Positions 32,352 to 54,528 of a stretch of 64,000 bases of DNA are shown here, piece after piece (within the stretch, counting starts at the first letter, position 1; each line of letters begins with the position of its first letter). The position numbers were made by a program, and so were the translations under genes. The notes under the pieces were generated by a model. It did not search any database, was not told the DNA's origin, and saw only the letters and a program-made list of their open reading frames with translations. The DNA lies in the NCBI GenBank assembly GCA_963693365.1, contig CAVNZM010000024.1, positions 4,937-68,936 of the forward strand, in the 5' to 3' direction. Source of the stretch: Amoebidium appalachense (lineage: Eukaryota; Protista; Ichthyosporea).

Positions 32352-32404
32352 ACGAAATAAAGGGGGGGGATGAAACCCCCCCCCCCCCCCCCCTCCCCAA
32401 GATG

Positions 32405-32630
32405 CACCGACCGTGTTCTCCCCCCCGAGCAGCCCGACCCGCCCGGACCGTTTTCTTACCAAACCAGAGAGAACAGGACGGCGGGCGCGACCCTTTGGCC
32501 CGCGAATTCGTAGAGAAAACGGTCCTCGGCCCCACCATGTCTCCCGCGGACAAAGAGAACACCGTGGCACCCGTTGCAATGTCTCCGAAATTTCTAGAGA
32601 ACAGGGTCGTGGGGTTGACCCTGTTCGCCC
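32405..32630. repeat. Palindromic array copy A (inverted homologue of 54304-54528)
   Basis: GAGAACA and ATGTCTCC blocks at ~42-bp spacing. Confidence 0.85.
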
Positions 32631-32760
32631 TGTCCAGGACCGCTTTTATTGAATAAAGGAGCCCCTCCCGGAATATAGGCAAGCAAAATATTCGATCAGT
32701 GGATTGCATGATTATCATCGGCGCTGTAAGCAAATGTTGCGTTGCAAAGAACTGGTGTGC

Positions 32761-34040
32761 ATGGAGCAGGCACTCGTGCCCCACTCCATCTCATTCGACA
32801 CGGGCACCCTGAACCTCGAGGATGCGGCAGCGTGCGTGGCCCAAGTCCTCCCCTACTCCGTTCCGGTTGAGGGGCCGTGCGCGGGGCTGACGCTGGGCGC
32901 GGCGGTGGGGGTCCTGAACAGCGCGCTGACGGTCAAGGACGATAACGTGTTGTCCACGGTGAATGAAATCAACGCAACATTGAGAAGCCATCAAGCTAGT
33001 CTGGCTCTCAAGGCTGAGAAGACTGCACTGGCAGCGCTTGCCGAGGTGGTTAATACAAAAGCAGATGAAGTTAGTGTGGCGGAGCGCCTAGACCAGAAAG
33101 CAGATAAGATCACGATCGACACAACTCTCGATGGCATCACGCAGGAGTTTGGTGACCGGTGCACAAACATCGAACAGCAAGTCCTTCTAAAAGAAGAGAA
33201 GAGTGTGGTGGCCCAGCTCCGCAGTGACTTCACCGAACGGACTGTCTATGTAGACAGCGAATTGTCGAACAGGGAGACCAAGGCCGTGGTGGGGAAGCTC
33301 AGAAACAACTTTACTGATAGGACCGCCTATGTCGATGGCGAACTCGCACCTTAGGGAGTCCAAGGCCGTGGTTGCAACATTAAGAACCGATTTCACTAAC
33401 AGAACCGTTTACGTAGACGGCCATTGCTAGCAAGGCAAGCGTGAAGCCACCATTGTGGATGCTTTGCAGAGCACCGTGCAGACACGCACGGCACAACCCT
33501 AGCGGCGAAAGCAGAACTCAAGTTACGTAGACGGCCTTCTAGCCAAAAAGCGGAAGCTACCATTGTGGATGCCTTGACCAGCTGCGCACCGATTGCACAA
33601 CCCTAGCGGCGAAAGCAGACTCACCTACGTTAACGGGCTTCTGGTCAAAAAGGGATTTTTTTTTTTTTTTTGTGTCGGCGAAAGCAGACTCAAGCACTGT
33701 GCAGGCACTCCAAACAACCGTCAAGACTCAAGGCACTACGCTGGCTGCGAAAGCCGATAAATGCTATTGCGATACGCAGTTGAACACCAAAGCAAACACC
33801 AGCGTGGTCGGCACCTACACCACCCCCACCACGGGCCCCGCCGCCACCAAAACCACCATCTCAGCCGCCGTGCTCGCGCTGAACGCGAGCGCCCCGCCGG
33901 CCAACGTGGGCACGTGGGCCGCGCCGACCGTGGGGCCCGCCGCGGGCAAGGCGACGATCGCCGAGGCCGTGCTGGCCATCAACGACCATGTGGACCGGCT
34001 GACGTCGGCGCTCGAGGCGCTGGTCGCCCGGCTTGAGTAA
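32761..34040 (+). pseudogene. Fibre stalk-like protein with KAD repeats, disrupted at ~33350-33670
   Basis: Repeated KAD/KAE coiled-coil units; P..GP.....AV..(L/I)N motif three times; multiple indels and a T16 run. Confidence 0.6.
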
Positions 34041-34052
34041 AGTCTGACAAGT

Positions 34053-35681
34053 TCACGCATTTATGTTGAGATACCAGCCGGCCCAGTCGCACCAGCGCCA
34101 CGTCAGGTTCCGTGTGGCGTCATAGTAGTCCACGTCCTTGTACTGCTGCGCGTCGACGGTGCCATCTGGCTTTGCGCCCTCGAGGTCGTCCAGGCGCACG
34201 ATGCTTCCCGTGTAGTAGTTGCCAGTCGTTTGTGCGGGCCACGGGGAGCCCGTGTAGAAGGAGGACACCAGAGGTTCATTGTTGTCGCTTGTAAAATCAA
34301 ATTTCGCACACGAAACGCCTGGGTTGGCGGCCTCCATGAGGCGCCCCATTTCGTTTGTGTCCCAGAACGGTTCCGTACTATCCCTGACCGACTGCTTGGT
34401 TTTTGCGGTGTTGATTGCCACATTATAAGGCAGTGCCACGTATCTGTACTTTGTAGCCTGAGGGACAACACAGACAAACTTTGTTTTGTGGCCGTACGAT
34501 ACGCTTATCTCATCCATGCCGACGTCCAATAGTATGTTCTCGTTGTTGATGGCGCCTCCGAAAATATAGGAATCGCTTCTCCCGTCGCTGACAAGATAGG
34601 CGGGAACGGGTGTGTTCGAGAGCCAACTGAGGGACTCCGTGCAGAGGGCGCCTGGTGGGGCGGTCCAGCTATCCGATCCGAAGCTCGGGTACCTCCTCTC
34701 AACGGCGACAAAGCCCGGCTTGGGGACAAGGTAGAAGAAGTTGTCCGTTTGGAACATGTTGCGGTACAGAGAGGGCATGCCTGCGACACCTGGTGCTGCA
34801 TACGTGCCTGCAAGGGACCCGGTGGTAACATTGACACATCGGACCGTTCCAAATTTCGAGCCGTGCGCCCACGTGAAGCACAAAGCTGCGAAGGTAGGAC
34901 CCTCCTTGTAGATTATCCCAAACGTCACGGCCCCGGGCGGCACGCGCGGGCTGCGGACCCAGCGGTAGCCGGGCCCGTCGATCTCGTTGAGCACGAGCGA
35001 GCGGGCGTCGCGGCCGGGCACGCCCAGGTCGTACGTCCACAGCTCGATGTCCTTGACGGCGTGCTCGGTGTAGTCGGCCGTGGATGTGTAGGCGCACAGC
35101 GAGAGAAAGGTACTGGCGGTGGATGAGGGGGTCAGGTCGGCCAGTGTGTATGTCAGGCGCAGCCGGCCGAGCGAACAGAACACGTAGCCGGCGTCCGGGG
35201 CGATGCTTATGACGCACGTCTGCCAGGCGCCGTTGGTGCCGTTGGCCGGCCATCCCAGGAAGTTGAACGAGCCGTTGGGCTGGTAGGACACGACCTTCCC
35301 GGACCCCGGATTGAACTGCAGGCGGAACTCCTTGCCGGCGACGGCTCCGTTTGGGAACGAGTTGGCCTGGTTCCACGACACGTACAGGGCCTCCTTCTGC
35401 GGGGTGGACCCGGCGCCGGTCCTGAACTTGAAGGACAGCACGAAGCGCTGCCCGGGGCACACGGGCCAGTACACGTAGCCGGTCTGGTTGGCGGCGCGGT
35501 TGGTGAGGCGGATCTCGGCATTGGCCCTGTTCATGTAGGCGCTGCCGCCGAGCGTGCCGGTGGTGGGGCACGCCCAGTTGGTGCGGGCCCAGTTCTCGGG
35601 GGTCTCCTGGAGCACACATCGGGGGGGCGAGCCCTCGATGTTGAGGATGCGCTGTGTGAGGCGGGCGAGGCGGTCCGCCAT
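34053..35681 (-). CDS. Lectin-domain protein 1 (L-type/ConA-like plus DM9-like)
   Basis: MADRLARL...LGGSAY...EIRLT...GYVYW...FVLSFKFR; PPGAVTFG; ends WRWCDWAGWYL. Confidence 0.7.
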   Translation of the reverse strand: MADRLARLTQRILNIEGSPPRCVLQETPENWARTNWACPTTGTLGGSAYMNRANAEIRLTNRAANQTGYVYWPVCPGQRFVLSFKFRTGAGSTPQKEALYVSWNQANSFPNGAVAGKEFRLQFNPGSGKVVSYQPNGSFNFLGWPANGTNGAWQTCVISIAPDAGYVFCSLGRLRLTYTLADLTPSSTASTFLSLCAYTSTADYTEHAVKDIELWTYDLGVPGRDARSLVLNEIDGPGYRWVRSPRVPPGAVTFGIIYKEGPTFAALCFTWAHGSKFGTVRCVNVTTGSLAGTYAAPGVAGMPSLYRNMFQTDNFFYLVPKPGFVAVERRYPSFGSDSWTAPPGALCTESLSWLSNTPVPAYLVSDGRSDSYIFGGAINNENILLDVGMDEISVSYGHKTKFVCVVPQATKYRYVALPYNVAINTAKTKQSVRDSTEPFWDTNEMGRLMEAANPGVSCAKFDFTSDNNEPLVSSFYTGSPWPAQTTGNYYTGSIVRLDDLEGAKPDGTVDAQQYKDVDYYDATRNLTWRWCDWAGWYLNINA

Positions 35682-35714
35682 TGAGTAGGGCAAAACAAAT
35701 GTGCGCAGTGGGCA

Positions 35715-37316
35715 ATGGCGGACCGGCTGGCGACGCTGGACGCGCGAATCGACAAGCTGGCAGGGCGGCACACGACGACGCTGGTGCTTGAGAACGCCGA
35801 AACGTGGAGCGCCACGCAGCAGGGCACGGCGTGGGTGGCGCCGGCGGCGGGCGTGCTGGGGGGGACTGCGTACATGAACAGGGCGGGGGGGGAGATCCGG
35901 CTGACGGACAAGCAGAGCAGCCAGCACGGCTATGTGGTGTGGGTAATGCCACCCGTGGACAACTTCCAGCTTGCTTTCCAGTTCAGGGCCGGCGACGGCA
36001 CGACCAGCGGTGCCGATGCCTTGTGGGCCAACTGGTTTAGCTTGGGGCAACGGTACTCCGGCCAGCGATACCAGGGGGAAGACGAGCTGCTGCAGCCCGG
36101 GGCGTACCGGCTGACGTTTGACGAGTACGAGGCGCAGTCGCGGGTGTACTTTGGCGCCACGGTGCTGGGCACAGCCACGTACCCCCGAGCCGGCACCAAC
36201 GGGGTGTGGTGGACGTGCATGGTGCGGTTTGCCGCCAAGACCAACGGGCTGCAGGTGCTGCTGGACAAGGGAGCGGGCTGGACGCAGCTGCACACCCAGA
36301 CACCCACACAGCCTGCCCCCACGCGCGCGACCATCCTCTCACTGTGCGCACGCACGGGCGGGCTCTCGTGCGAGCACGCCGTGCGCAACATCACGCTCAC
36401 CACCAACACGCCGTCGCCCGGGTGCGACGCCGCGCTGACGGCCATCAACGAGCTCGAGTTTCCCACGCACACGCTTGTGCGTGCGAGCCGACCGCCGCCG
36501 GGGGCCGTGACGTTTGGGGTACATGTTAATCTGGGGCCGATCTATGCGGGGTTCTGCGCATCAGCACACGGCATGGTGCCGTGCAAGATTTCGGCGATCG
36601 GAAGCCCGATGACGGCGTACTACGCCCTGGGTGGGGCGTCCTACTCAAGCACAACGTTCTTCTATGTGGTGCCCAAGGCCGGGTTTGTTGCAACGCGCAG
36701 GCGGCAGATCGGGGGACCGCCCAATAGCGCGCTGTACATCGGCAAACCACGGGCAGCGCAAGAGCGTGGCGCCCTGTACCTCATCTCTCTGGAACGCACG
36801 GACACGTTCACGTACGGCTCGTACGAGCCGGGGGGTTCGATCCTGTGTGAATACATGGGCGCTATCACGCTTACAGACGACGGGTCGTGGGAGTACGTGT
36901 GCGTCGTCCCGCAGACCACCAAGGGGCGGTACGTGACGCTCCCACGAGGCGTCTGCACAAGTTCTGTAGGTGGTGAGTGGTCACCGGCGACTACCTTCAC
37001 GGGCCTGGACGTGGACGAGATCGTGGCGGAGGGCGAGCGCATGGCGGCCGCAAAAGGGGTCACGCTCATGGCCGTGGACTACTCGTACAAGCCGGCACTG
37101 GGGCGGGGGTACTACTTCAAGCCGGCCCCGTCGTGGCCGGCCAAGACCACGTGGCGGGACGGGGCGTGCATCATCCGCACCGACGTGTTCGAGAACGCCA
37201 AGCCGCGTGTATCGCCAACGGCGTACACCAACGCCGACTACACGGACACCAACCTGCTGGTGTGGCGCTGGCACGCTGCCTGTGGCTGGTACCTGAACAT
37301 GGCCATGCTCGCCTAG
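35715..37316 (+). CDS. Lectin-domain protein 2
   Basis: MADRLATL...LGGTAY...EIRLT...GYVVW...GADAL; PPGAVTFG; ends WRWHAACGWYL. Confidence 0.75.
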   Translation: MADRLATLDARIDKLAGRHTTTLVLENAETWSATQQGTAWVAPAAGVLGGTAYMNRAGGEIRLTDKQSSQHGYVVWVMPPVDNFQLAFQFRAGDGTTSGADALWANWFSLGQRYSGQRYQGEDELLQPGAYRLTFDEYEAQSRVYFGATVLGTATYPRAGTNGVWWTCMVRFAAKTNGLQVLLDKGAGWTQLHTQTPTQPAPTRATILSLCARTGGLSCEHAVRNITLTTNTPSPGCDAALTAINELEFPTHTLVRASRPPPGAVTFGVHVNLGPIYAGFCASAHGMVPCKISAIGSPMTAYYALGGASYSSTTFFYVVPKAGFVATRRRQIGGPPNSALYIGKPRAAQERGALYLISLERTDTFTYGSYEPGGSILCEYMGAITLTDDGSWEYVCVVPQTTKGRYVTLPRGVCTSSVGGEWSPATTFTGLDVDEIVAEGERMAAAKGVTLMAVDYSYKPALGRGYYFKPAPSWPAKTTWRDGACIIRTDVFENAKPRVSPTAYTNADYTDTNLLVWRWHAACGWYLNMAMLA

Positions 37317-37339
37317 CACATTTTGTGGGGGACTGCATT

Positions 37340-39724
37340 ATGGGCGACCGTGTGAGTGCCCTTACAGCTCGCATTGCGTGGCTGCCCACCAGCCAGCAGG
37401 GATCGCGGTGCCTCGTCTGGGAGACCCCGGACGTGTGGGCCGCCACGGGCTGGCAGGCCCCGGCCACAGGCCACCTGGGAGGATGTGCGTACTTGGACAA
37501 GACAGGGGGGGAGATCCGGCTGACCCCGGGCACGGCCAGCCAGCTGGGCTACGTGTTCTGGCCCCTGCATGCGGGCCGCCGGTTTACGCTCAGCTTCGAG
37601 GTGCGGGTCAAGCGCTTCACGGCGCTGCCGGGAACCAAGATATGGGCGGCCGTGTGGAGTCCCGTTCTGGGGCACGCATCGAGCAGTGGAAGCACCAACG
37701 TGGACCTTCGGCTGACTATGGACGGCCAGGCCGGTACGCTGAGCACCGAGACGCTCACGCAGTCCGTGGATCTCGACTCCACGTACACGACGACGGGGGC
37801 CTGGACGCCAGTTGTGATTGACGTGGTCCGGGACCAGCGGGTGACGTACGTGCACGGGGCAGCCACAAAGACCGTCACAAGCACGGCTGTGACGACGTCC
37901 GTGTCGCCCAGCAGCAGCTACGTGTGCATCGGCGCACAGACGGGCAGCAGCTACAGCGAGGTGGGCGTGCGCAACGTGGCGCTGCACTGCATGGATCCCG
38001 AAGCCATCGGGCGGGACGTGCGGCGGCTGGCGTGCAACGAGGTGGAGTTTGAGACCTACACGCTGGTGCGCCGGGCGGTGCCACCGCGCAATGCCGTGAT
38101 GTTCCAGTGCGACGCGTATGGACCGGTGTGGGGGGGCTTCTGTGTGACTAAGGAGCACGGGCTGATGCCATGCAAGATAGTGAGCAAGAACAACACCGAG
38201 CCGGTGGCTGTCTACGGGGTCGGAACCTTAGACATGTCCACATCCGATTTCGTTGATAAACCCGAAGGCGAGTCCCGTCAGATAACGGCGTCCGTATTCT
38301 TCTACCTAGTCCCAAAGCCGGGCTTCGTGGCGTGCCGGCGGCCCCAGATCAGAAGTGTGGCTGCCGGGGCCGTGGCCGTAACGTGTGCAAGCATGTCAGG
38401 GAGCCGCACGCCGCTGTACCTGATCTACTGCGAGTACAGCAACGCGTTCGGACGGTACGACCCCAGCAAGTTTGCCGAGGTGCAGTCGTCGCAGGACAGG
38501 TGGACACGCATGCTTGACTGCGGGAGTTGGGACTACGTGTGCATTGTGCCGCAGACCACCCGAGCCCCCTGGGTACAGCTGGCAAGGAGAACTTTTTCGG
38601 CGGGTGCCTCGGTATCCAACCCAGCTGGAACAAACCATTGGGCGGCAATAGTCGCGTACGCAGACACAAAGGGTTACACAAAGGTTTGCTACGAAACCAC
38701 CAGCAGTGCGCCCAATCTTAACTGTGTGTCTGGTGACATCAACACAAACGATGTCATGGTCCCCAATGGGGTGCGGTCGGCAGAATCTGTGGTGGTGAGG
38801 GCGGATCTTTTGACCAAGACCATGCCGGGCGCAGCGACAAACACCTCGAGCTACGTGTCTACCACACTTGTCAACTCGTGTGTGCCATGGCGCTGGAACA
38901 ACTGGTCGGGGTGGTACGTCTACATGCCGTATGCACGCTCGCGCTGGTACGTGTTTGACCAGCTGGCCGACCACAGCACCAGCAACACATTCAACGACTG
39001 GACAGATGCCAGCAATTTCGGATACGCAAGCCCGCAGCAATGCATGGCACGTGCAGAGGCCACCTCGGGGTGTCGGCAATTTGGCTTTGCGCCCGTCGTC
39101 AATGTAGGCGGTGTCTATGGCTACTGCTATATGCGCAAGGCGGTGGCAGCGTGGCCGTTGCAGGCCTGGACAAATCCACCCGGTATTTCCGCCTGGACTT
39201 ACAGTACGCAGCAAACATATATCATGGAGCCTGATGTTCCAGTCGCCTACCGGAACCAAGGAGTCCTGTGCGAATGGAACGGCTATTACATTCGGAGATG
39301 GGCTGTTGAACTTGGCACGTACCCCATGTCGCCCTGGGGCTCGGCATCGGGGTTTGTGACCACTGTCGCAAAGTGGATCTGGTCCGTGCCTAACGCGCAT
39401 CTGGGTTGTATGCCCAGCTGGACGTACGGCTACAAAACCTACGACAACGGGAGCTCCCCCCTTGATGTTGTGATTCATGCGCTGTGCGACAAGACGATGC
39501 AAGTGAGTGTGAACGGCATTAAGCTCGGAGTGGTAGTCGGTGGCTGGACGACCACCTCCTACCCCAAGATCAATGCTACCCTACAGCCCTTTGGAAACGT
39601 CGTTAGTTTCGTGGCCAATAACGGCACAGCAGCAAGCACCGCGGGAGTGCTGATTGCTGTGGTGCGCAGGGACAATGGCGCCGTGTTGTTTGTGAGCGAT
39701 GGGTCATGGACGAGTTCCATTTAA
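37340..39724 (+). CDS. Lectin-domain protein 3 with added PAN/apple-like and C-terminal WIW beta-sandwich domains
   Basis: Same core as paralogues, plus SPQQCMARA...CRQF...YCYMRK and AKWIWS...VNG...SDGSW. Confidence 0.75.
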   Translation: MGDRVSALTARIAWLPTSQQGSRCLVWETPDVWAATGWQAPATGHLGGCAYLDKTGGEIRLTPGTASQLGYVFWPLHAGRRFTLSFEVRVKRFTALPGTKIWAAVWSPVLGHASSSGSTNVDLRLTMDGQAGTLSTETLTQSVDLDSTYTTTGAWTPVVIDVVRDQRVTYVHGAATKTVTSTAVTTSVSPSSSYVCIGAQTGSSYSEVGVRNVALHCMDPEAIGRDVRRLACNEVEFETYTLVRRAVPPRNAVMFQCDAYGPVWGGFCVTKEHGLMPCKIVSKNNTEPVAVYGVGTLDMSTSDFVDKPEGESRQITASVFFYLVPKPGFVACRRPQIRSVAAGAVAVTCASMSGSRTPLYLIYCEYSNAFGRYDPSKFAEVQSSQDRWTRMLDCGSWDYVCIVPQTTRAPWVQLARRTFSAGASVSNPAGTNHWAAIVAYADTKGYTKVCYETTSSAPNLNCVSGDINTNDVMVPNGVRSAESVVVRADLLTKTMPGAATNTSSYVSTTLVNSCVPWRWNNWSGWYVYMPYARSRWYVFDQLADHSTSNTFNDWTDASNFGYASPQQCMARAEATSGCRQFGFAPVVNVGGVYGYCYMRKAVAAWPLQAWTNPPGISAWTYSTQQTYIMEPDVPVAYRNQGVLCEWNGYYIRRWAVELGTYPMSPWGSASGFVTTVAKWIWSVPNAHLGCMPSWTYGYKTYDNGSSPLDVVIHALCDKTMQVSVNGIKLGVVVGGWTTTSYPKINATLQPFGNVVSFVANNGTAASTAGVLIAVVRRDNGAVLFVSDGSWTSSI

Positions 39725-39731
39725 GGACAAA

Positions 39732-40121
39732 ATGTCGCCCCCATGTATGCGGCGGCAGTCGGTTCTCTCCGAGGGCCTCGGGCTCGGCCGGCTGATGCGC
39801 AACGACGTGTACGCGCGCGTGCGGTCGCTGAAGGAGGACGTGGCGCGCCTGGAGCACGAGAACGACCGCAAGGCATCGTTGGTTGAGCTGTACGTGCGCG
39901 AGATCGACGCCATGCGCAAGGACCTGCATGCCGTGTACGACAAGGTGGGCGAGCTTATTGACAACCTCGCCGACATGCAGCACGACCACAACGACTTTGT
40001 GCGGGAGATCGTGCGGCTGCGTTGGACGGTCATGCACATGGGCGAGGACCTGCGCCGCATGCAGCAGCATCCACCCGTGGAGCCCTCCTCGCCACGGTGG
40101 CAGTGGAACGCGCCCCGCTAG
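39732..40121 (+). CDS. Coiled-coil hypothetical protein
   Basis: Heptad pattern and GC3-rich codons. Confidence 0.6.
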   Translation: MSPPCMRRQSVLSEGLGLGRLMRNDVYARVRSLKEDVARLEHENDRKASLVELYVREIDAMRKDLHAVYDKVGELIDNLADMQHDHNDFVREIVRLRWTVMHMGEDLRRMQQHPPVEPSSPRWQWNAPR

Positions 40122-40143
40122 CGGTATTTTCCGCGCGTCAGGT

Positions 40144-41115
40144 ATGTCGTATGAACCCTCGACGCTGAAGGGATACCTAGCCGCCAACCATGATCTGCGG
40201 GCAAATGTTGTGAATCGCGGCAAACCGGCGCAGGCCAAGAATCAAGTCGAAGCACTCGGTGGGGGAAACCCGCCGATCCTTGCCCCCGAAGACCGCCAGA
40301 AGCTCCTGGGATGGCTGGCACGCGCCAGCACCGACCTCAAAGAGATACTGCTCGTGGACCGCGAGGAGGTGACCACGACCCATGCTCACATGGCTGCAAA
40401 CCAGAAGGTGCTGCTGTACGGACCGGCCGGTGGCGGCAAGCTGCACTGTGTCTTCTCGGTGTGTCGGCGGGTCGGCGTGTTTCCGTGGGTGGTCATGGTA
40501 GGCGAGCTGCTGAACACGGAGAACCTGCCCTTGCTAAACTGGATTGCACAGCACGATCGACGAGGAGCCCTTGTTGTGCGAGATGCCCACAACCTGACGG
40601 AGCAGAGCATCTCGGTGCTTGTGCTCGGCCTAGCGTACGCGATTCCCATCATCGGGCTCGCGAGCACGGCATCGGAGGCGTCGTGTGCGACACGCAAGTA
40701 CTTTGATGCGACTGTACACTGGCCGGCTCTGCGCGAGTCGGAGGCTAAGCTGTGTATGCAGCTGTTCGAGACCGAATTACTTGAAAGGGATCAGGATGTG
40801 TTCAAGGGCCTCCTTGTTGCCGCTGAAGACCTGACGGTTGGTGCACTGGTGGGAGCCCTACAGGTGGCAAGACGTACCCTCGCCGAACAAATGTCTGTTT
40901 GTGCAGTCGGGAGGGGCGATGACGGTGCGGTGTTTTTTGACACGCGTGCTGATGTACAAAGAGTTGTTCTAGCGGATGCCGGCGACAAGTTAAACTGGAA
41001 CGCGCTTAGCTCAAGCGTACCCCATACCATCTATGCAGTCATGCTCCTGTTGGCATGGGTCCAGGGCATGCTCTTGTCACCTGTCGACGCAACCGATTTT
41101 GCTTGCTACAGGTAG
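40144..41115 (+). CDS. Degenerate AAA+ ATPase-like protein
   Basis: KVLLYGPAGGGKL Walker A lacking S/T; altered Walker B LVVRDAH. Confidence 0.55.
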   Translation: MSYEPSTLKGYLAANHDLRANVVNRGKPAQAKNQVEALGGGNPPILAPEDRQKLLGWLARASTDLKEILLVDREEVTTTHAHMAANQKVLLYGPAGGGKLHCVFSVCRRVGVFPWVVMVGELLNTENLPLLNWIAQHDRRGALVVRDAHNLTEQSISVLVLGLAYAIPIIGLASTASEASCATRKYFDATVHWPALRESEAKLCMQLFETELLERDQDVFKGLLVAAEDLTVGALVGALQVARRTLAEQMSVCAVGRGDDGAVFFDTRADVQRVVLADAGDKLNWNALSSSVPHTIYAVMLLLAWVQGMLLSPVDATDFACYR

Positions 41116-41116
41116 A

Positions 41117-42154
41117 ATGGATCTGGACGAGTACACCCGAAGTCTGCTTACCATAGACCTCAATCCGGGGCCTATTAGTAAAGAAGAGGCAAGAGACTAT
41201 TCCGAATCGAATGTTTCATCGCTTCGCTGCCTCCTGTTTGCCATCCAGCTTTGGCTGGTCCGCGATCCTCAAACCCCCTTGGACCTGGTCGTGGATGACT
41301 CAGGGCAGACCCCGGCGCTGGTGGTTCCTGGTCTGGATTGGCGCGTTTTGAAGCTCCCGCTCTTTGCCCCGGCTTTCGCGATCCCGTATCCGGTTGCCAA
41401 ACCAACGTCGTTTGTGCAGCACGCGAACGACAGAACCTACGACAAAGACGAGCTTGCCGATCTGGTGACGGCCATGGTCCCGGGCATCCGGAGCATGATG
41501 CTCACCCGGCCCCGCACGCACGCACGGCACCCCGTGCTGCCGGCCACCATGGCCGAGGCTGTGACGCGCGTGGACCCCGCCTTCGACAAGGTGGCCGCCC
41601 AGTTCGCCGACCTGGTGCGGGCGAGCACCCCGAAGGACTCGATGGAGGTGCTCAAGCGCGACCGCGAGATCAAGCTGCTGCAGCAGTGCCTGCTGGAGCT
41701 CGAGCTCGAGTACTTCCGGCTGCAGGCCGAGAACGAGCACCTGAAGGAGCAGGAGGCCGCCATGGAGAAGAACTTCCTGCTGCCATGGTTCAAAGCGCAG
41801 GAGGACGTCTCGCAGCGCATGGCAATGTTCGAGGCGGCCGAGCGCGACGAGTACTCGCGCATGCGCAACTTCCAGCAGCAGGTGTCGGTGCAGGCGTTCA
41901 ACAGCAGCCTGCAGGCGCAGAACAACGCGCTGCTTGCGGCGTCGGGTGCCGCCATCAACGCTCGCCCGACGGCGGACTTTGCTGCGATGCTCTCCCGCAA
42001 GCGCGAGCTGGATCTGGACGACTTCGAGGAGAGCATGAAGCGCATACGCATGGCAGAGGACCAGCAGAAGGCAGCCACCATCAACCCCGACACCTACCGT
42101 GACAACATGACCATGCGTGAGGGCGTGACGTTCCCGTATTCGGCTGCAAAGTGA
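41117..42154 (+). CDS. Hypothetical coiled-coil protein
   Basis: Long ORF with strong GC3 bias. Confidence 0.7.
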   Translation: MDLDEYTRSLLTIDLNPGPISKEEARDYSESNVSSLRCLLFAIQLWLVRDPQTPLDLVVDDSGQTPALVVPGLDWRVLKLPLFAPAFAIPYPVAKPTSFVQHANDRTYDKDELADLVTAMVPGIRSMMLTRPRTHARHPVLPATMAEAVTRVDPAFDKVAAQFADLVRASTPKDSMEVLKRDREIKLLQQCLLELELEYFRLQAENEHLKEQEAAMEKNFLLPWFKAQEDVSQRMAMFEAAERDEYSRMRNFQQQVSVQAFNSSLQAQNNALLAASGAAINARPTADFAAMLSRKRELDLDDFEESMKRIRMAEDQQKAATINPDTYRDNMTMREGVTFPYSAAK

Positions 42155-42211
42155 ACAAAACCTAAAAACAGAGTTTGCGTTTCGGCTGCAAGGTGAGCGC
42201 CGGCGCCGAAA

Positions 42212-42577
42212 ATGCATGCAAGAACCATGACCCGCCGGCGACACTCCTCCACGGCTAAAACCTGCAAGAAACGCAAGGGAAAGAGACGTTGCTCAAGCAG
42301 GCACACCCACAAACACCCGGCCAAGCGGCGTAGCTCGCGCAGCGACAGAGAGCGCAGGCGCCATCGGTACAGGACGCAGTGGCGCACCAAGTACCTCGTG
42401 CTGCCTTCCCGCTTTTATGGTGACAGGCAGCGCACATCTCCAAGCGCTCCCACCACAAAGTATGACCCACCGATGCGCACGACCTCGAAGGCTTCAGGGT
42501 GTGGCTACAATGTCGGCCCCGGGGAAACTGGTCGGCCATGCAAAAACATCCATGACGTAGCCGAACCGGAGTTTTGA
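42212..42577 (+). CDS. Arg/Lys-rich basic protein, possibly DNA-condensing
   Basis: RRRHSS..KKRKGKRR..RRRHRYR. Confidence 0.5.
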   Translation: MHARTMTRRRHSSTAKTCKKRKGKRRCSSRHTHKHPAKRRSSRSDRERRRHRYRTQWRTKYLVLPSRFYGDRQRTSPSAPTTKYDPPMRTTSKASGCGYNVGPGETGRPCKNIHDVAEPEF

Positions 42578-42735
42578 TCTGGATCTAATTATATCTGATT
42601 TTCAATCGGTTGCGCGCGATCCGATTGGTCGGCATGGGTCGCCCGATCTGATTGGCTGGCATAAAACGTGGCTTCCTCACTTCGCTCCGGATCGCGCCGG
42701 CACGGCCAGCCCCATCTGAACTGCCTGCCGCGAAC

Positions 42736-43446
42736 ATGCATGTCTTTTGTCTGTTCTTGCTTGTGCTTGGGTGTAAGATACGTGCTCAGACGTTGTCCCG
42801 CTACGGTTCTGGGGATGGAAACGTGCTGTTTGCATACGAAGGGGTGGCCAACATAGACCGCTATCCCGATGTTGCACATCTCGCACACAGCCACATTGTG
42901 AGGGTGACGCATGCAGTTACGGGCGTCGGTTGGACATCGGGGACATACATACCGGACGGGACAGGCAACGGAGTGTTTGTGCTGACGTGTGCGCACGGGC
43001 CCCCCACCAGGCACCCGGACCAGCTGGCGGTGGTGTTCCCGGACGGCACCGTATCCAACGCCACTGTGCGATACAGGAGCGCTGAGCATGACTTTGCCAT
43101 CCTCCATTCGGTATACGCACATGGGATGCACGACGACCGCTTTTGTCGCTACTACGCACCCCCCGCTGCCCCTGGCATGTCCGTGCTGGCCATCGGGCTC
43201 CCTGCGGGATACAGGGGTGTGCAGTTCAGTGTGGGGACGCTCTTGGACATACAGGGTTCCACGCAGGAACTTGTGTTCAGCGGGGCCGTAGACCGTGGGA
43301 ATTCGGGGGGGCCCCTTGTGGACATGCGTGGGTGTTTGATAGGCATTGTCACGAGGCGCAGGTACCGCATGAATGGCAGGGAGGTGTTTATTGGGATAGC
43401 GGTGTCTATTGCGGCCGCCCTGGAGGCGGATGCGCGCGGGTATTAA
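42736..43446 (+). CDS. Trypsin-like serine protease with signal peptide
   Basis: VLTCAH, DFAIL and GNSGGPLVD..G.LIGIV give the catalytic triad; hydrophobic N-terminus. Confidence 0.85.
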   Translation: MHVFCLFLLVLGCKIRAQTLSRYGSGDGNVLFAYEGVANIDRYPDVAHLAHSHIVRVTHAVTGVGWTSGTYIPDGTGNGVFVLTCAHGPPTRHPDQLAVVFPDGTVSNATVRYRSAEHDFAILHSVYAHGMHDDRFCRYYAPPAAPGMSVLAIGLPAGYRGVQFSVGTLLDIQGSTQELVFSGAVDRGNSGGPLVDMRGCLIGIVTRRRYRMNGREVFIGIAVSIAAALEADARGY

Positions 43447-43474
43447 AGCAGTCGCACGGGCAGTGCCCGTCACA

Positions 43475-44152: not shown

Positions 44153-44360
44153 GCTTCCTGTTCACAAAGAACTTTAGGACCGGCAGCGGTACGAAGACAA
44201 GAACGTAGGGGTGGACGGCAAGGTAGACAAGCAGCAGACACCTGCTCAGCCAGTGCGCGTGACTCCTGTGGTCGGTGTGTACGTGTTGTGGTTCGCGCTG
44301 TTGTAGTGCTGGCGAAAACGGGTCGGAGGAGTGCATGGCGGTGTTTGGTGTAGGGCATAT

Positions 44361-44597: not shown

Positions 44598-44650
44598 TCC
44601 CGTGTTTATTTGAATAAAACTGCCCTGCCAGAGGGAAGAGAAATCCACCC

Positions 44651-45052: not shown

Positions 45053-45114
45053 GCCAGGACGTCCCATTACCAGTGGAACAGAAAATAAATGGCAGCCCAA
45101 GATGCTACACATGT

Positions 45115-46416
45115 TCAATACATGTGCCGGTAGGGCGTGTTGTGGAGATACAACAGGTCCGCGCGCGTCACCTCATCCGGCAGGGCACTCTCGGGCACGC
45201 ACGCACGCGTGTTCAGGAGCAGCAGCAGCGCAAAGACGTGCTTGAAAAACGCCAGGGCCAGCTCCTCTGCGGGAAGGCTCGCGTGGTTGATTCGCGCCAA
45301 AACACTGTACCAGTCCGGTGTCTCGTCGTGCATCAAGAAGCGCCTGTTCGGGGCGTTCATGTGAGACAGGACGCGGTACAGGGCGGCACGGCTCAGTTGC
45401 TCGGCCCCTATGTACCAGGCGAACTCCGCGAGTTCAAAGAGGGCCGAGAGCGTGTGCTTGTCGTCGGCCGGGAGCTCGATGTTGCCCATGTGGAAGTACT
45501 GCAGGACACAGTGAAACACCCGTGTGGTTACTGCCAGACGAGGGCCTTCGGTGTGCTCCATGTACCCGGTGCCCAGGAGCACCCTGAAGAAGCCGTTCGA
45601 ATGGGACAAGAGTTCGGCGCAGGCATTCACGCTGCCGTCCAACAGGGTTATGTGCCTCCCACCCGGAAAGTCGGCTAGGACACGCCTGTAAGGCGCTTGC
45701 TGGGTGGAATAGCCGAACAGTGCGTGCCGGGTTATGCGGTACAAGCTGATTCCCGAAGCCATGTAGATTACAGGGCCAGACACGGCAATGTGCACGGCCG
45801 CGTGGGATTCGCCTGTAACTTCGGTGAACGGCCCCGCTACATATCCGACCCCGTGCACCGACACCTCGAAGACGCACTGTGTCGTGGTGTCGAATATCCA
45901 GCTCCTGGTTTCTTCTCTGTCGTGCTTGTGGTAGCCGCGTGTGGACATGTGATTGCAGCACCATACACCGCCTATCAGGGGCGACAGATCGCGGACGGGC
46001 ATCGGGGGGCGGGGCGAACATGCTGGCACCCCATTCTCGAGGTATAGCTGTTGGTGGTCGTCAGCCACAAACCCCACTTGGTGTGCTTGTATGATGCCAG
46101 GGGTGTAGCTGTCAAGGACAATGTACTCCGTTGGAGATCCAGCTCGGCCGACAAGAACAGGGTCAACGAGTGTCCGGTCCGATGGGACAACGGCCGTGAT
46201 GACCTTGATGCGTTTCCCTGGATTCAGCTCGGCACTCCGGTTAGTTATCCGACCGGCGTTGTTGACTTGAAAAACAAGATGTTCCATCGCCATGTACAAT
46301 ATACCATCCACTACGCCCAGACCGGTGATGTTGCGATCCAGGTTGGCGTAGGTGATGCGCTCGCATTTCATCACGTGGGGCACGGAGGCAGATTCGACTG
46401 TCGTCCACTGGTTCAT
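45115..46416 (-). CDS. Beta-rich N-terminus plus BTB/POZ domain protein
   Basis: LLSHSNGFFRVLLGTGYME...FHCVLQYFHMGNIEL...LFELAEF. Confidence 0.6.
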   Translation of the reverse strand: MNQWTTVESASVPHVMKCERITYANLDRNITGLGVVDGILYMAMEHLVFQVNNAGRITNRSAELNPGKRIKVITAVVPSDRTLVDPVLVGRAGSPTEYIVLDSYTPGIIQAHQVGFVADDHQQLYLENGVPACSPRPPMPVRDLSPLIGGVWCCNHMSTRGYHKHDREETRSWIFDTTTQCVFEVSVHGVGYVAGPFTEVTGESHAAVHIAVSGPVIYMASGISLYRITRHALFGYSTQQAPYRRVLADFPGGRHITLLDGSVNACAELLSHSNGFFRVLLGTGYMEHTEGPRLAVTTRVFHCVLQYFHMGNIELPADDKHTLSALFELAEFAWYIGAEQLSRAALYRVLSHMNAPNRRFLMHDETPDWYSVLARINHASLPAEELALAFFKHVFALLLLLNTRACVPESALPDEVTRADLLYLHNTPYRHMY

Positions 46417-46452
46417 CTTGAATATGACACATGAGACATGGCAGGTCGTCGC

Positions 46453-47562: not shown

Positions 47563-47657
47563 GGTGGGTGTATCTGTCTTACTCTCCTATAATAATTTAC
47601 AGCCACCAAACACCTATCATCCTCAACCTAGATTTGTCTATCCAAAACCACCACGCG

Positions 47658-48744: not shown

Positions 48745-49092
48745 GTTGTCTGGGTTGTAGGTTTCTTGTTACTGGGTGGGCTTCTTTGGCAGACTGATGG
48801 CGGACTACACAAACCAGTCCTTTTATACCTTCGAATGAGTGAATCGAGGAATGAATGAATGAATGAATTAGTGCTCCGAAATCCAATCTTCAACCAAAAA
48901 AAAATCTGGTAACTGGATTCGACATTGCGTGATGACGTCACAACAAAAATTCCAGCCAATCAAATAACCGGTAACTGCTTGTTACCAGTTTTTCGACCAA
49001 TCGAATCGAATTTGACGCGACGCGAACCCATTTCGAAAAACCTCTTGGTTGCAATAGGGTCACCTGCGATTGATGGAATGCTCGGTATACTG

Positions 49093-49778
49093 TCAGTTGA
49101 CAAGCAGAAGCATAGCCAACTGCAGAATATCACTGACGACCCGGTACACAATAAAGTTGTCTGCATATGGGTTGTACCGTAGCCACCTACATCCCAGTTG
49201 CTTGGTGATGTGGTTCTGGCGCTCTTCCTCATAGGTCGGATCGCGGTCATCATGATTGTGCTCGTCACACTCCACCACCAGGTTGAGTTCTGGAAAAAAA
49301 AGGTCCACTCGGTAGGGCTTGACATAGAACTGGGGCTTGCTTTTGAAACATGATGTGCACTGCCGTATGATGTTAATGGTCTCGCTCTCGGCCGATGTCT
49401 GCAGCAGTACTATAGGGAGGTCGGCCAAATCAAACACATGCATCCAGTATCGCTTCTTATCCATGGACAGTTTGCAGCCTGGTATTAGAGCCTTCACGAT
49501 CTCGCGAATTGTGTTGAGGGTAGCAAATGGTGTTGGCTTGCTCATTCCAGGTAAGCGCATGTTGACCACACCCATTAGACGATCTTGATTGGTTAGCCCA
49601 GAACTGGCTTTCGTATGCCATTTTCCTTGACTCATACGTAGCCATGACTGGTGCGCTGCATTGCGATCTCCCAAGTACCAACGCCATGATGTCCAGAACG
49701 CTAACTTTGTTGGTAGCGGGGTCTGTTCGCACTGCTGGCATTCTTCAACACCGGAAATTGCTGTGTCAGGGTCTCCAT
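49093..49778 (-). CDS. Paralogous Bro-like N-terminus plus DUF559/Vsr-like endonuclease, frameshifted at the 5' end
   Basis: TNKVSVLDIMALVLG shared with the neighbour; YRVDLFFPELNLVVECDEHNH...LRYNP. Confidence 0.7.
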
Positions 49779-50016
49779 ATTGATGGTAGAAGCAAGGTCC
49801 ATCTTGCAGATACGGCGAATTTGAAGAAGTGAGACGAGTCAGACCATAAGGGGTTGCTTTTTATACCTCCCGAATCGCCACAGTTGGGAACTCAACCACG
49901 CCATTGTTGTAGGTATAAAAGCCAGTCCAACAGATTTTTTAGTGTGCCCAATCCCAGGGGCCCCAGGTATATAAGCCCCTCCCCGCTCCCGTCCTTTCAT
50001 TCCGCCCCCTGGTAAC

Positions 50017-51456
50017 ATGGACGACTACCTCGCCTTCGAAGACACCGCCGCCGGCCCGCACTTCGGCATCCCCTTCGTCCCCGACGCCTGCCTGGACCAC
50101 GAGTGGACCCCGGAGCTCGCCGTCGCCTACCTGCGCAGCAATGTCGCCCACGTCAAGGGCTGCTCGACGTACATCCTCAAGCAGTGGTGCCAGGACAGGC
50201 TGAAGTACGAGCACCGCATCCTGGGCAAGCGCGACATGCAGGACACGCTCGCCAAGTTCCACTTCCCGCTGCTGGCCGACCGCCCCAACCAGCAGCCCGC
50301 CGCCCCCTACCGCGGCCGCGAATACCTCAACAGCCCGTACATCCTCATGTACGACCGGCTGGTGTTCGATCCCGCCAGCCCGGACCCGCGCACGGGGGTG
50401 TACAAGAAGTCCGCCGGGCCCTACCGCACGTTCAACCTGTTCACCGGGTTCCGGTTCACGCTGAGCAACATGCCCGTAGCCCGGCGTGACGAGCTGGTGG
50501 CGCCCTTCGTCTCGCACGCGCGCGACGTGCTGTGCGGTGGCGACCCCGGGCTTTTTGACTACCTGATGCTGTGGATGGGCCACCTGTTCCAGCACCCGGC
50601 GTCCAAGCCCGGCAGCGCGCTGCTGCTCGTGTCCAAGCAGGGCGCGGGGAAGAACATCTTCTTCCAGGCGCTCATCGACGCCATGGGGGTCGAGCACTCG
50701 GTGTACGTCAACCGGCGCGACCGCATCCAGAACCACTTCAATGCGCACCTGCAGAACAAGCTGCTGGTGGTGGTCGACGAGGTGCTGTTCAGCAACTCGC
50801 GTGAGGTCAACAACATCATGAAGTCGCTCATCACCGAGTCGTCCAACATCCTCGAGAAGAAGGGTCAGGATGCCGTGGCTGTGCGTGCGTGCGAGCGCTA
50901 CGTGCTGCTGACCAACGAGAGCAACCCCGTGCTTGTCGAGCCCAGCGACCGCCGCTACGCGTGCATGGCCGTCAGCAACGCGCGTGTCGGCGACACGGCC
51001 TACTTTGCCACGTTTCACCAACACCACAGAGACCCCGAGGTGCTGCAGGCCATCCACGACCTGCTCGTGTCCGTGCCCGACGTGCCGCCCGTGCTGCCGC
51101 CGCCGCCCGTGACCGACCTCAAGAAGGAGCTGCGTGGCGCCACGCTTGACGACAACGTGGCGTTCCTTCGTGACATCGCCACGGGCGCAGACGGCTGCGA
51201 GGACCTGGCCGTCGCCGACGGCGCTTACGTGACCACTTTCGGGCTGGCCGAGCGCATGCGCACGTGGGCCGCACGCAACGGCAAGGACCCCGCGGCCGTC
51301 AGTGTCAAGAAGCTGGGCGGCGTGCTCGGCAAGGTGTTTGGGCAGCGCGTCAAGAAGCAGCGGAGCGCGGTGGCGGTGGGGGGCGTGGAGGGCACGGATC
51401 CGGAGGAGTACGTGCACGTGTACGTGTTCGAACACGCGAAGGTGGCGGGGGCGTGA
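50017..51456 (+). CDS. D5-like SF3 helicase (DUF5906-type), copy 1
   Basis: QGAGKNIF, FNAHLQNKLLVVVDE, LLTNE...DRRY, C-terminal winged helix. Confidence 0.88.
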   Translation: MDDYLAFEDTAAGPHFGIPFVPDACLDHEWTPELAVAYLRSNVAHVKGCSTYILKQWCQDRLKYEHRILGKRDMQDTLAKFHFPLLADRPNQQPAAPYRGREYLNSPYILMYDRLVFDPASPDPRTGVYKKSAGPYRTFNLFTGFRFTLSNMPVARRDELVAPFVSHARDVLCGGDPGLFDYLMLWMGHLFQHPASKPGSALLLVSKQGAGKNIFFQALIDAMGVEHSVYVNRRDRIQNHFNAHLQNKLLVVVDEVLFSNSREVNNIMKSLITESSNILEKKGQDAVAVRACERYVLLTNESNPVLVEPSDRRYACMAVSNARVGDTAYFATFHQHHRDPEVLQAIHDLLVSVPDVPPVLPPPPVTDLKKELRGATLDDNVAFLRDIATGADGCEDLAVADGAYVTTFGLAERMRTWAARNGKDPAAVSVKKLGGVLGKVFGQRVKKQRSAVAVGGVEGTDPEEYVHVYVFEHAKVAGA

Positions 51457-51582
51457 GGGGGGGGGGGGAGCTACAATGTTTTGGGTTTTATTCAAAAAGC
51501 AACACAGATATAATCAGCCAGCACAGCGGCCAATAAACAAACAAGCCTTCAGACAAGATCATGGGTGCCAGCCACGCCCATT

Positions 51583-52431
51583 TCAAAGCGCATGCCCGAT
51601 GTCGCCCACCTGGTTCCACGGTGTTCTCTGGTTGTGCATGAATTCGGGGATGTCCCAGTACTCCATGCCGCTGTTGTTGCCGTAGATGGCATGGATGATG
51701 TTCTGCCGCAGTGGGAGACCACCCGCTTCCAGGGCATGCTCAACCTGCGCGAGCCAGGGGTCCAGCCACGTGGTTGTCCATTGCTGCACAGCAGCCTGCA
51801 GCTCCTGGAAGGACGTGCCTCCCGGTGCGGCGGCCTCGGGGGCCTCGTGGTCTATCCCGGCCTGGTACGCCGTCTCGGGCGGGGGCTGCGGCTGCGGAAG
51901 CACCACCAGCTTCTCGAAGAGCAGTGCGGGCATGATCCAATACGGCCACCTCCTGACGCCCAACTGGGCCTCCAGAAATTCCTCCTCCTCCTCCTCCTGC
52001 TCGCTTGTAGAGCCGTCCAAGGTGACAGCTTCCCAAAACACCCACCCACTGCTGGTCAGTTTCATGCCGTATGACGTGTCGTCCATTTGCAGTTGCAGGA
52101 CGTAGTAGTAGGGGCTGAGGCTGGTATTGGCAGCGGGATGTCCGGGGCGATACCGACCACTGCCGTAGTCGAAGTTGCATCTAAGACGCCAGACCTCGCT
52201 TATGGCGCCGCTGAATACGTTAATGGAGTTTTCTATTCCCGTGCCATCCGGACCCGTGGTGGTTACCGGTGTTATCACGGGATGGGCAATCCTGTATGCA
52301 GACCCCTGCTGTCTCCATGTCACATCCCCGTCTTCAACACCATATGCTGGATCCATTTCATTTAGAAGCCCCACCAAGTCTTCCTCCGTGGTGATCTGGA
52401 TTGGGTCCCAGCGTGTGGTCATTACAGCCAC
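51583..52431 (-). CDS. Acidic hypothetical protein
   Basis: 282-aa ORF with protein-like composition. Confidence 0.55.
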   Translation of the reverse strand: MAVMTTRWDPIQITTEEDLVGLLNEMDPAYGVEDGDVTWRQQGSAYRIAHPVITPVTTTGPDGTGIENSINVFSGAISEVWRLRCNFDYGSGRYRPGHPAANTSLSPYYYVLQLQMDDTSYGMKLTSSGWVFWEAVTLDGSTSEQEEEEEEFLEAQLGVRRWPYWIMPALLFEKLVVLPQPQPPPETAYQAGIDHEAPEAAAPGGTSFQELQAAVQQWTTTWLDPWLAQVEHALEAGGLPLRQNIIHAIYGNNSGMEYWDIPEFMHNQRTPWNQVGDIGHAL

Positions 52432-52571
52432 ATATCAAAATGTATGAACATTGCCCGAAAGAACCACCGACGTGTTGCTTTATTCAAAAAAGCAGCATGA
52501 TACACAGATACTTGGTTTATTTCGTGCATGAACTTCTCCCGGAAGCACATCAAACAACTTCCAAGCCCTCC

Positions 52572-52668
52572 CATGCTAACACCATCCCATCAAACCAACC
52601 CCCATCTAGCTCATGCTAACACCATCCCATCAAACCAACCCCCATCTAGCTCATGCTAACACCATCCC
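52572..52668. repeat. 40-bp tandem repeat, ~2.4 copies
   Basis: catgctaacaccatcccatcaaaccaacccccatctagct at 52572, 52612 and 52652 (partial). Confidence 0.95.
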
Positions 52669-52691
52669 TCCCCCCCCCCCCCCCTCAGCCC

Positions 52692-53555
52692 TCACTCAAG
52701 CTCCGCAACAACCTTCATCACCCAATCATACCCCTCCCGCAGGCGCTGCTCAATCATCTCCATGTCCTGAACAAAATAGTGGTTGCCCTCATCCCACCAA
52801 ACGGGAACCTCCACCGCCCACTCATCGATCGATGCCGCAAGAGCAGAGTCTCTCTCCTCCGCCCCCCACACATCGTCCGAGTCGATACGTTTCCCGGGAG
52901 GGTACTTCGGATCCCTCTGCACTCGATCAAACAGAAATATCTCGCACTGCCGGAGCACGTTGCCACTTGCAAGCTCCCCGGGTGTGAGCGCAAAGGGGAC
53001 GAGGTTTGGACGGGGAGAACCGGGGGGGCGGGGAACGTAGGCGAACTGGCCGGGCCCCTCCCCGCCCTGGCGGCGGTGGACACGTTCGGCAATCCGATGG
53101 CGCAGCGCTTGCTTGTTGCGCTCCACAGCATCCTCCGCCGACCAAAAACCCACATACCCGTCCTTAACCGCCCGAGCCGCCTCTGCCATGTCGTGGAGCG
53201 CCTGCGCCACCGCCCGTGCCTTAGCCGCGCCCACGACGTTGCGCCCAGGCTGCTGCAGGTACTGGCGCAGACCCGGCACGACGGACTGTGCAGCCACTGC
53301 GCACCCCCCGAACTCCGTGACCAACGGACGCACCTTGTCGCGCGCGGGCCCGACGGCGTTCTCTGCGGCGACGAGGGCAAGGATGGCGTCCTGGCAGTGG
53401 TTTAATTCCCTGCACACCTTCACATGCGAGGGGATCTGGTCGCTGTGCATGTCAGCGACACAAGCGCGGCACTTGACCATGTATTTGTCCTTGGTGTTCT
53501 TAGTGAAAAGGTGATCGGTCAGCCATTTGTAGCTGCGCTTGCCTACTTGTTCCAT
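52692..53555 (-). CDS. Protein with N-terminal BED-like Zn finger
   Basis: W..HLF...VKCRAC...HVKVC. Confidence 0.55.
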   Translation of the reverse strand: MEQVGKRSYKWLTDHLFTKNTKDKYMVKCRACVADMHSDQIPSHVKVCRELNHCQDAILALVAAENAVGPARDKVRPLVTEFGGCAVAAQSVVPGLRQYLQQPGRNVVGAAKARAVAQALHDMAEAARAVKDGYVGFWSAEDAVERNKQALRHRIAERVHRRQGGEGPGQFAYVPRPPGSPRPNLVPFALTPGELASGNVLRQCEIFLFDRVQRDPKYPPGKRIDSDDVWGAEERDSALAASIDEWAVEVPVWWDEGNHYFVQDMEMIEQRLREGYDWVMKVVAELE

Positions 53556-54303
53556 GGTGTGTGTGTGTAGAAATGGGGGTGCAAAGCGAAAAATCAGTAA
53601 AAGGCGACCTAACAAGCGACTTCAAAGCCTTTGATGTTGACACTACAGAAGGTGTGTGAAAGTGACACCCTATCAGCTGTGCCGTGCCCTTAGAAGCCAA
53701 TTCCCAACTGATGCTGACGAAATGATATCATTGTAATTAAAAACAGTCACGCGTTTGATTGGGAGAATGCTTTCAGATCCAGATCACCAAACTGCACGAT
53801 TGGCTGCTGGGGATTGGATCACACCCAATTCAAGATCCAATCAGATCCCGCGAAGAGCAGGCAATGCCAGTGCTTCAAGATTTTTCAATGACAGCTGATG
53901 CCTTTTTCTCTTCTATCCCTTAGAACCAAACATAAGAATAAAATCAAACGTTTTATACCTAATTTCATATTCAAGATAGTTTTATAAACAATTCGGTCAC
54001 ATTTCTAATAGAAATCGCGAAGAAATAGTCCTTTCAACGATTACAAACAGATTCTGAAACCTTGGTCAGGATCTTGAACGCTTTCGACCAATCAGATCGA
54101 ATAGCGGGGTAGCCAACTGCGCGCTGCTTTGGCCGTTTATTGGCACATCTGGCGCTGCTTTGGAACGAAGTTGTGGTTCCGCGTTGCCTGTTCCGGGGGC
54201 CTGGGGGGGCGCCTGTGGCACACAGACCCGTGAGACCACTGTGCCTTCCGTGCCTCGCGTGCCCCTCATGCCCCCCAGGCCCCGCTCCTAGGAAAAAGCA
54301 ATC

Positions 54304-54528
54304 GGCGAACAGGGTCCACCCCCGGCACCTGTTCTCCAAGGATCCGGGAGACATGGTTGGGGATGCCATGGTGTTCTCTTGGGTTCCGGGAGACATGGGG
54401 GGGACCGGCGATGCTGTTCTCTAGCAAAATCACGGGCCAAACGTTCATGGGCACTGCCGTGTTCTCTCTGGTTTGTGGAGAAATCGGTGGACTGGGTAGG
54501 GGGCGGGGGCAGGAGAACAGGGTGGTGA
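54304..54528. repeat. Palindromic array copy B (inverted homologue of 32405-32630)
   Basis: TGTTCTC and GGAGACAT blocks; reverse complement aligns with copy A. Confidence 0.85.

Follow-up and report, generated by a model that had tools for sequence, protein, structure and literature searches.

The window analysed here is a stretch of 64,000 nucleotides from the ichthyosporean Amoebidium appalachense (assembly GCA_963693365.1, contig CAVNZM010000024.1, positions 4,937 to 68,936), in which two short palindrome arrays, hereafter copies A and B, lie in opposite orientation at the two ends of a 21.7-kb interval (Table 1). The first 6 kb of the window are AT-rich and host-like. A Polinton-like virus region follows, and from position 27059 onwards lies a GC-rich element, poor in introns, that carries both arrays along with PCNA, YqaJ, DUF5760, trypsin-like, DUF5906 primase-helicase, Fic and patatin genes. 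We take this gene set to be giant-virus-like, although no capsid or polymerase gene of this element was identified in the window, and the arrays thus appear to belong to a giant-virus-like element adjoining a Polinton-like virus. The window was compared with the short-read contigs of four sequencing runs (X3, X12, X13 and X18). At 27058/27059 the main contigs of X12, X13 and X3 run left into other sequence and contigs of X18 exit behind 27048 and 27058, showing that the window is a composite of two elements. The inverted array pair is a real, constrained and non-coding feature of the right-hand element.

Table 1. Features of the window that concern the two palindrome arrays and their surroundings.
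Feature	Position	Strand	Remarks
Polinton-like virus region	6300-27058		double-jelly-roll capsid, A32 ATPase, IS481/rve-like integrase, Dam methylase
PCNA gene	30647-31432	-	outer neighbour of A; 44-49% identity to best homologues; marks the gene context
Poly-C tract at outer edge of A	32376-32398	+	bridged by none of the contigs listed
Array copy A	32405-32630	+	four imperfect palindromes with a lone half-site at either end; intergenic, both neighbouring genes on the plus strand
A outer lone half-site TGTTCTCC	32414-32421	+	
A unit 1	32450-32475	+	spacer and right arm in a 16-column run identical to B unit 1, the longest of the alignment
A unit 2	32494-32519	+	left arm TTTGGCCC(G), off consensus yet the same in B
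A unit 3	32538-32561	+	TGTCTCC-N10-GAGAACA
A unit 4	32580-32603	+	TGTCTCC-N10-GAGAACA
A inner lone half-site GACCCTGTTCGCC	32617-32629	+	same in B; 10-bp stem with right arm of unit 4 in A only
Inter-array interval	32631-54303	.	fibre-like gene with repeats, three paralogues, trypsin-like, YqaJ, DUF5760, DUF559 nuclease, DUF5906 primase-helicase
Array copy B	54304-54528	-	ten half-sites matching A in type and order; in a 1-kb gene-free stretch
Fic-domain gene	54622-55419	+	outer neighbour of B; next comes a patatin-like gene, 55416-56327

Each copy is built from ten half-sites of a single 7-bp motif (TGTTCTC/TGTCTCC versus GAGAACA), in an order shared by A and B: a lone TGTTCTCC, four units consisting of a left arm, a spacer of about 9-12 bp and GAGAACA, a lone TGTTCGCC, and finally GCTTTT. 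The recurrence of GAGAACA about every 42 bp, proposed in a preliminary description made from the letters of the window, was borne out, with GAGAA[AC]A starting at 32469, 32513, 32555 and 32597 in A (gaps of 44, 42 and 42 bp) and, on the minus strand, at 54466, 54421, 54378 and 54336 in B (gaps of 45, 43 and 42 bp). The same holds for the imperfect palindromes that TGTCTC was said to form with GAGAACA, found in four units of each copy, and for the 10-bp stem of copy A (32599-32608 with 32617-32626), of which B retains only 7 bp. A triple at the array period was seen in none of 100 shuffles of 27059-64000. Orthologous units of A and B share 27-31 of 40 positions, against 14-26 for other pairs and 15-24 for units within one copy, indicating that duplication of the entire array followed the divergence of its units, with no homogenisation since. 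Both arrays are GC-rich (61-62%). Copy B lies 94 bp from the start of the Fic-domain gene, and a tract rich in AT (72% at 53901-54000) is found some 270 bp away from it; around A, no 100-bp segment exceeds 49% AT.

The inverted relationship, described earlier as an end-to-end match between 32405-32630 and 54304-54528, was recovered when the window was compared with itself by blastn, which paired 32405-32629 with the reverse complement of 54304-54527 over 228 columns (72.4% identity, E 1.6e-23, 107 bits). With 200 dinucleotide-shuffled versions of copy A, no match to the window exceeded 31.9 bits. The search for more copies that had been suggested, made by nhmmer with a profile of both arrays, returned two matches in the window, A and B themselves, and no third. 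Copy B was reproduced with 0 differences by short-read contigs at 54279-54428 (X3) and 54433-54628 (X12, X13) and is therefore no assembly artefact. The contig comparison covered 28 of 235 pieces and 20 of 32 loose ends at B, and 32 of 1736 pieces and 24 of 174 loose ends at A. More broadly, the stretch 31000-36000 was present in 20 of the 24 runs listed (three named studies and ten runs naming none), one of which may be the source of the window.

Conservation between the copies is concentrated in the palindrome arms, where 57 of 60 columns are identical, compared with 112 of 166 elsewhere (Fisher p 8e-6, an optimistic value, as the motif was picked after both copies had been seen). All of the conserved blocks named in the preliminary description occur in the alignment, but blockiness by itself departs only weakly from randomness (p 0.33 for the runs, 0.29 for the longest run and 0.025 for columns falling in runs of at least 7), and it is the arm positions, not the block structure, that give the strong signal. 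Mismatches inside the palindromes are kept in both copies, namely a C opposite A in unit 3 and the TTTGGCCC arm, which points to recognition of sequence on duplex DNA rather than to pairing. Among copies of the element, the array spacers differ, while the flanking genes match with 0-3 differences per long main contig listed. The main X12 contig at A opens with 8 loose letters, 7 of which match the spacer of B at the homologous place, and it differs from the A of the window by 6 letters and 1 gap over 32531-33155, whereas contigs of X3 and X13 start at the inner edge of A (32628, 32648) and match the inner flank exactly. Several A alleles must therefore exist, one of them with a B-like spacer obtained by exchange or descent. 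The outer flank of B is the same in the main contigs of X12, X13, X3 and X18; one X3 contig of depth 2, about 90% like the outer part of B and then continuing as different sequence, gives a weak hint of a third array type. X12 has no cover at 32420 and 32448, a hole without evidential weight. Neither copy lies within a gene, and the gene start closest to each is on the inner side for A and on the outer side for B, which argues against oriented core promoters.

The preliminary description had placed the constraint at the level of DNA or RNA on the grounds that indels break the reading frame; the part of this view that excludes a protein stands, while an RNA fold found no support. Open frames do overlap the arrays (32348-32656 and 54034-54396), and over 16 codons of the 5' half the copies differ 1/4/8 by codon position, a coding-like pattern that two paralogous short open reading frames (ORFs; the MSP...EN repeats) would produce. 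Over the 31 in-frame 3' codons that make up the MSP...EN part, however, differences are distributed 10/8/6, with 2 codons changed synonymously only and 12 non-synonymously, and Pfam gave no match for the array frames. Since the window and the short-read contigs differ by single bases at several places, the indels that separate A from B had to be verified by other means, which contig polymorphism provides: indels are polymorphic at 32448, 32570 and 54426-54432, the extra base at 32570, which falls inside the MSP...EN frame, accounting for all depth in X12 and X18, 383 of 1829 in X13 and 3.6 of 32.5 in X3, and one-base deletions at 54426-54432 being common in X12, X13 and X18. Frameshift alleles at such frequencies do not fit a protein. 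In-frame paralogues with synonymous-site divergence were looked for in the two arrays and not found, and this explanation is scarcely credible. It is very improbable, too, that each copy is a small non-coding RNA gene of the VA or EBER kind, with short bulged-A hairpins and a terminal T run. GCTTTT ends both copies, local hairpins can be drawn, and RNAalifold proposed 41 pairs, 2 of them with compensatory change between the two sequences; yet this covariation amounts to no shared fold, folding z scores are -0.88 and +0.06 for the two copies, A and B fold differently, and only 7 base pairs have a probability above 0.3 in both copies when the array strand is taken as RNA, the three remaining strand and parameter settings giving none. 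The mismatches in the stems are conserved, Rfam returned nothing at gathering score (10 and 5 matches in E-value mode, all below it), and no tRNA was found by a tRNA search. A degenerate 42-bp minisatellite that was duplicated once and has drifted without function would agree with the weakly non-random block structure taken alone and with the abundance of other short repeats in the element, and a 43-bp minisatellite with both 7-mers on an unrelated, AT-rich metagenome contig illustrates that the pattern can arise independently. We nevertheless give drift a very low probability, the conservation of the arms being out of keeping with it while spacers vary among near-identical copies of the element.

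Other explanations give a meaning to the opposite orientation of the arrays, which the preliminary description had viewed as the possible ends of an invertible or mobile cassette with fibre and lectin genes. The contigs lend no support to either kind of cassette. As for the cargo, a repeat-containing fibre-like gene is indeed present, but the lectin label is weak, as it concerns one of three paralogues and both Pfam lectin matches fall below cut-off. A DDE transposon or cassette (of the inverted repeat/direct repeat or Mutator type) that once inserted the 21.7 kb would have left terminal inverted repeats, now old, of about the length and orientation observed, with TGT near each outer edge, and two DDE-type genes occur in the window (IS481/rve-like at 19843, Tc1/IS630-like at 27-30.6 kb). 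Both, however, lie outside the interval, whose genes are of virus type like those of the flanks; the arrays are only 72% identical; no target-site duplication of 4-12 bp was detected when the ends were shifted over a 22 x 22 grid; and no alternative flanks appear at B, the outer edge of which is crossed at equal depth. Main-contig depth, a weak measure, is 47.2 on both sides of B in X3, and in X12 it is 534 outside A versus 525-567 inside. Insertion by such a transposon is decidedly improbable. Recombination sites deserve more attention, although they too are unlikely. Resolvase res sites and the FRT inverted repeats of the yeast 2-micron plasmid consist of ordered, unequal palindromic subsites and, like the arrays, come as two inverted copies; unit 1, with a conserved asymmetric 7-bp core, would here be the crossover site and the other units accessory, and inversion of the 21.7 kb, or the resolution of multimers, would fall to a recombinase whose gene lies elsewhere. 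The inverted orientation, the number and order of unequal subsites shared by the copies, the longest identical run across the spacer of unit 1 and the B-like spacer letters of the X12 contig at A (7 of 8), which hint at exchange or a shared ancestral spacer, are all consistent with this scheme. On the other hand, an identical crossover core is limited to unit 1, units 2-4 having different spacers in A and B, and the copies are only 72% alike. Tyrosine and serine recombinases were looked for and not found in 53 ORFs with Pfam, 25 with PHROGs or 20 with NCBIfam, many ORFs being unannotated. Contigs of X12, X13 and X3 pass unbroken through unit 1 of B and its outer edge into the Fic-side flank, and one X18 contig (53856-55300) covers all of B with the flanks of the window. 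Strand-switching joints at B are absent from the contigs listed, none of the 20 loose ends seen (of 32) starts inside B, and the orientation of the window is the only one at B in 4 of 4 runs. These data give no support to frequent flipping, though rare inversion could escape them, since contigs drop rare forms and none of those listed bridges the poly-C tract at the outer edge of A. A joint between 32398 and 36289 in X13 (depth 17.5, a short side of 21 letters, at this tract) was judged unreliable. In a related and improbable scenario, the arrays are a res/FRT-like platform or the paired origins of a nuclear, high-copy giant-virus-like element in an animal or animal relative, low-frequency flipping of the 21.7 kb, or firing, amplifying the copies in the manner of the 2-micron plasmid; this would account for the unequal depths between runs and for the B-like spacer at A.

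The duplicated, diverged arrays are, if only by a little, probably multi-site docking platforms on double-stranded DNA (dsDNA) for a dimeric protein, most likely with the role of an origin or enhancer as in the homologous regions (hrs) of baculoviruses. Each TGTyTCC-N9/10-GAGAACA unit would bind one protein dimer, and the 42-45 bp period, about four helical turns, would line the dimers up on the same side of the helix; units 1 and 2, which are degenerate, are perhaps weaker or specialised sites. The whole array may then serve the giant-virus-like element as an origin, enhancer or partition platform indifferent to orientation, and the opposite orientation of A and B may be incidental, the chance being one in two for a dispersed element of this type. 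The distance of about 22 kb between A and B resembles the spacing of dispersed repeats. The hr-like origin or enhancer put forward in the preliminary description thus survives as the closest analogy, with constrained palindrome arms, but the arrays are GC-rich and un-homogenised and stand in a non-baculovirus gene context. By analogy, they would work most like hrs without being a member of that group. Baculovirus hrs, which act as origins and enhancers, are reported to consist of 64-bp repeats, three to eight in number, that contain an imperfect palindrome of 24 bp (PMC4535591), and are described as AT-rich (PMC4535591, PMC6669502). Sphr1-7 of Spodoptera litura nucleopolyhedrovirus II (SpltNPVII; PMC4535591) and the hrs of Autographa californica multiple nucleopolyhedrovirus (AcMNPV; PMC6669502) resemble the arrays in being intergenic, dispersed tandem units with an imperfect palindrome of about 24 bp in a large dsDNA virus-like genome. 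They differ in their AT-rich, conserved 64-bp repeats, compared with 61-62% GC, a period of 42-45 bp and units sharing 15-24 of 40 positions in the arrays, which have four units in both copies. As far as the window covers it, the element carrying the arrays has nucleocytovirus-type genes; the Pfam matches of 53 ORFs include no baculovirus family, and no IE-1-like protein was found. Several observations weigh against a docking platform of this kind: A has no AT-rich neighbour, and the arrays are themselves GC-rich where hrs are AT-rich; the units are un-homogenised within a copy, which a res-like site with unequal subsites, or a later duplication of the whole array, fits equally well; just two copies are available, from the 37 kb of the element that the window covers; no relative with the array motif emerged from scans of viral, metagenome and prokaryote contigs; and the 16-codon stretch mentioned above is coding-like.

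In these scans, the motif pattern was found at 0 and 0 loci in viral contigs, at 0 and then 6 loci in metagenome contigs, none of the 6 being scored by the A/B profile at E <=10, and at 1 locus in prokaryote contigs, which was taken as chance. The candidates L002 (1-480) and L006 (2944-3140) correspond to a 43-bp minisatellite in AT-rich non-coding DNA and were judged convergent, not homologous, by profile. This minisatellite has both array 7-mers at the spacing of the array units and decays gradually along L002. Resemblances to auxin-response, steroid-response, E2F and heat-shock elements, to the hairpin ribozyme and to H/ACA boxes were rejected, since A and B could not both be reconciled with their spacing, orientation or pairing, and a sigma-70 scan was uninformative for this host. 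Among repeats of giant viruses, the M1/M2 elements of pithoviruses are reported as fold-backs of about 140 bp resembling miniature inverted-repeat transposable elements, with 47-54 bp terminal inverted repeats (TIRs) and a putative TA duplication, making up 16-18% of the genome (PMC10664404). They are like the arrays in being non-coding palindromic repeats in a giant-virus setting and in regions of raised variability, and unlike them in that the arrays are two copies of units with 7-bp arms and lack a duplication. Nor do the arrays resemble the terminal TIRs of 10.8-14.8 kb and the 6-bp duplication given for a Chlamydomonas giant endogenous virus (10.1101/2024.09.03.611062). No description of the array was found in the literature searched, which lacked most subscription papers. 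The sequence collections gave no match to the motif beyond chance-like ones, but palindrome arrays of this general sort are known from large DNA viruses.

The wider setting of the arrays offers further observations. In the Polinton-like region, the capsid protein (9448-11196) was modelled with a mean predicted local distance difference test score (pLDDT) of 76.7 and matched the capsid of Paramecium bursaria chlorella virus 1 (PBCV-1) in Foldseek (E 6e-14); a relative with 36% identity occurs in Sphaeroforma arctica. Many insertions of this kind are known from ichthyosporeans (PMC11244446). Searches of viral contigs with this capsid protein, the Fic protein, P0165 and the PCNA alignment gave no relatives. 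None of 1135 candidates proved homologous to the gene upstream of A, and a single-sequence fold of 45118-46416 was unusable (pLDDT 33.6). At 24652-26874, inverted GT and CA microsatellites enclose a 305-residue ORF of no known family, and the flanks vary in contigs, which suggests a small mobile unit. At the left end of the right-hand element, a large gene on the minus strand (27052-30627), combining a helix-turn-helix domain with a Tc1/IS630-type DDE domain, is split into four overlapping frames and cut at the junction. A homologue of 1403 residues (44% identity) matches three of these frames and clusters with proteins from Daphnia assemblies. Such a length is unusual for Tc1/IS630 transposases, and the gene is a possible integrase of the large element.

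From 27059 to 43000, main contigs have depths of about 85 in X3, 530 in X12 and 1300 in X13, and mostly below 25 in X18, and in the runs that contain this stretch the whole contig sets amount to just 1-3 million letters; depth is a poor measure of copy number, but these values suggest that it is high and variable for this element. The contigs also contain a second, diverged family (about 86% alike over 31029-31933). Within the interval, the fibre-like gene has a tandem repeat of about 104 bp (33409-33652), and a go-back joint between 33549 and 33443 in all four runs implies that the number of repeat units differs from that in the window. The three paralogous genes occupy 34053-39724; the first two are arranged head to head, their starts (35681/35715) separated by 33 bp. 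A 1.2-kb module at about 52690-53885 reaches a depth of 797 in X18, compared with about 20 around it, and has other flanks behind 53885; it is likely a separate small mobile element. Around B, 9-bp GTGCCTCGC repeats occur at 54196-54292, 56375-56478, 57500-57596 and 58154-58290, near primase-helicase genes; they are length-polymorphic and form direct and inverted pairs, one inverted pair enclosing array B with the Fic and patatin genes and another a truncated primase fragment. Two motifs close to B, at 54070-54108 (39 bp, with a CCAAT box) and 54524-54556 (33 bp), recur at loci with other flanks on both sides and are likely promoter modules.

Cis-acting origins and enhancers have been poorly defined so far in nucleocytovirus-like elements. 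At present, the arrays are one more candidate palindrome array in a large DNA virus. Being short and sharply defined, such an array is a bait for finding the protein that binds it, and it offers a test of how an element of this kind is copied or kept in a eukaryotic nucleus. Should the pair be a true inversion system, it would give a giant-virus-like element an unusual means of amplification or switching.

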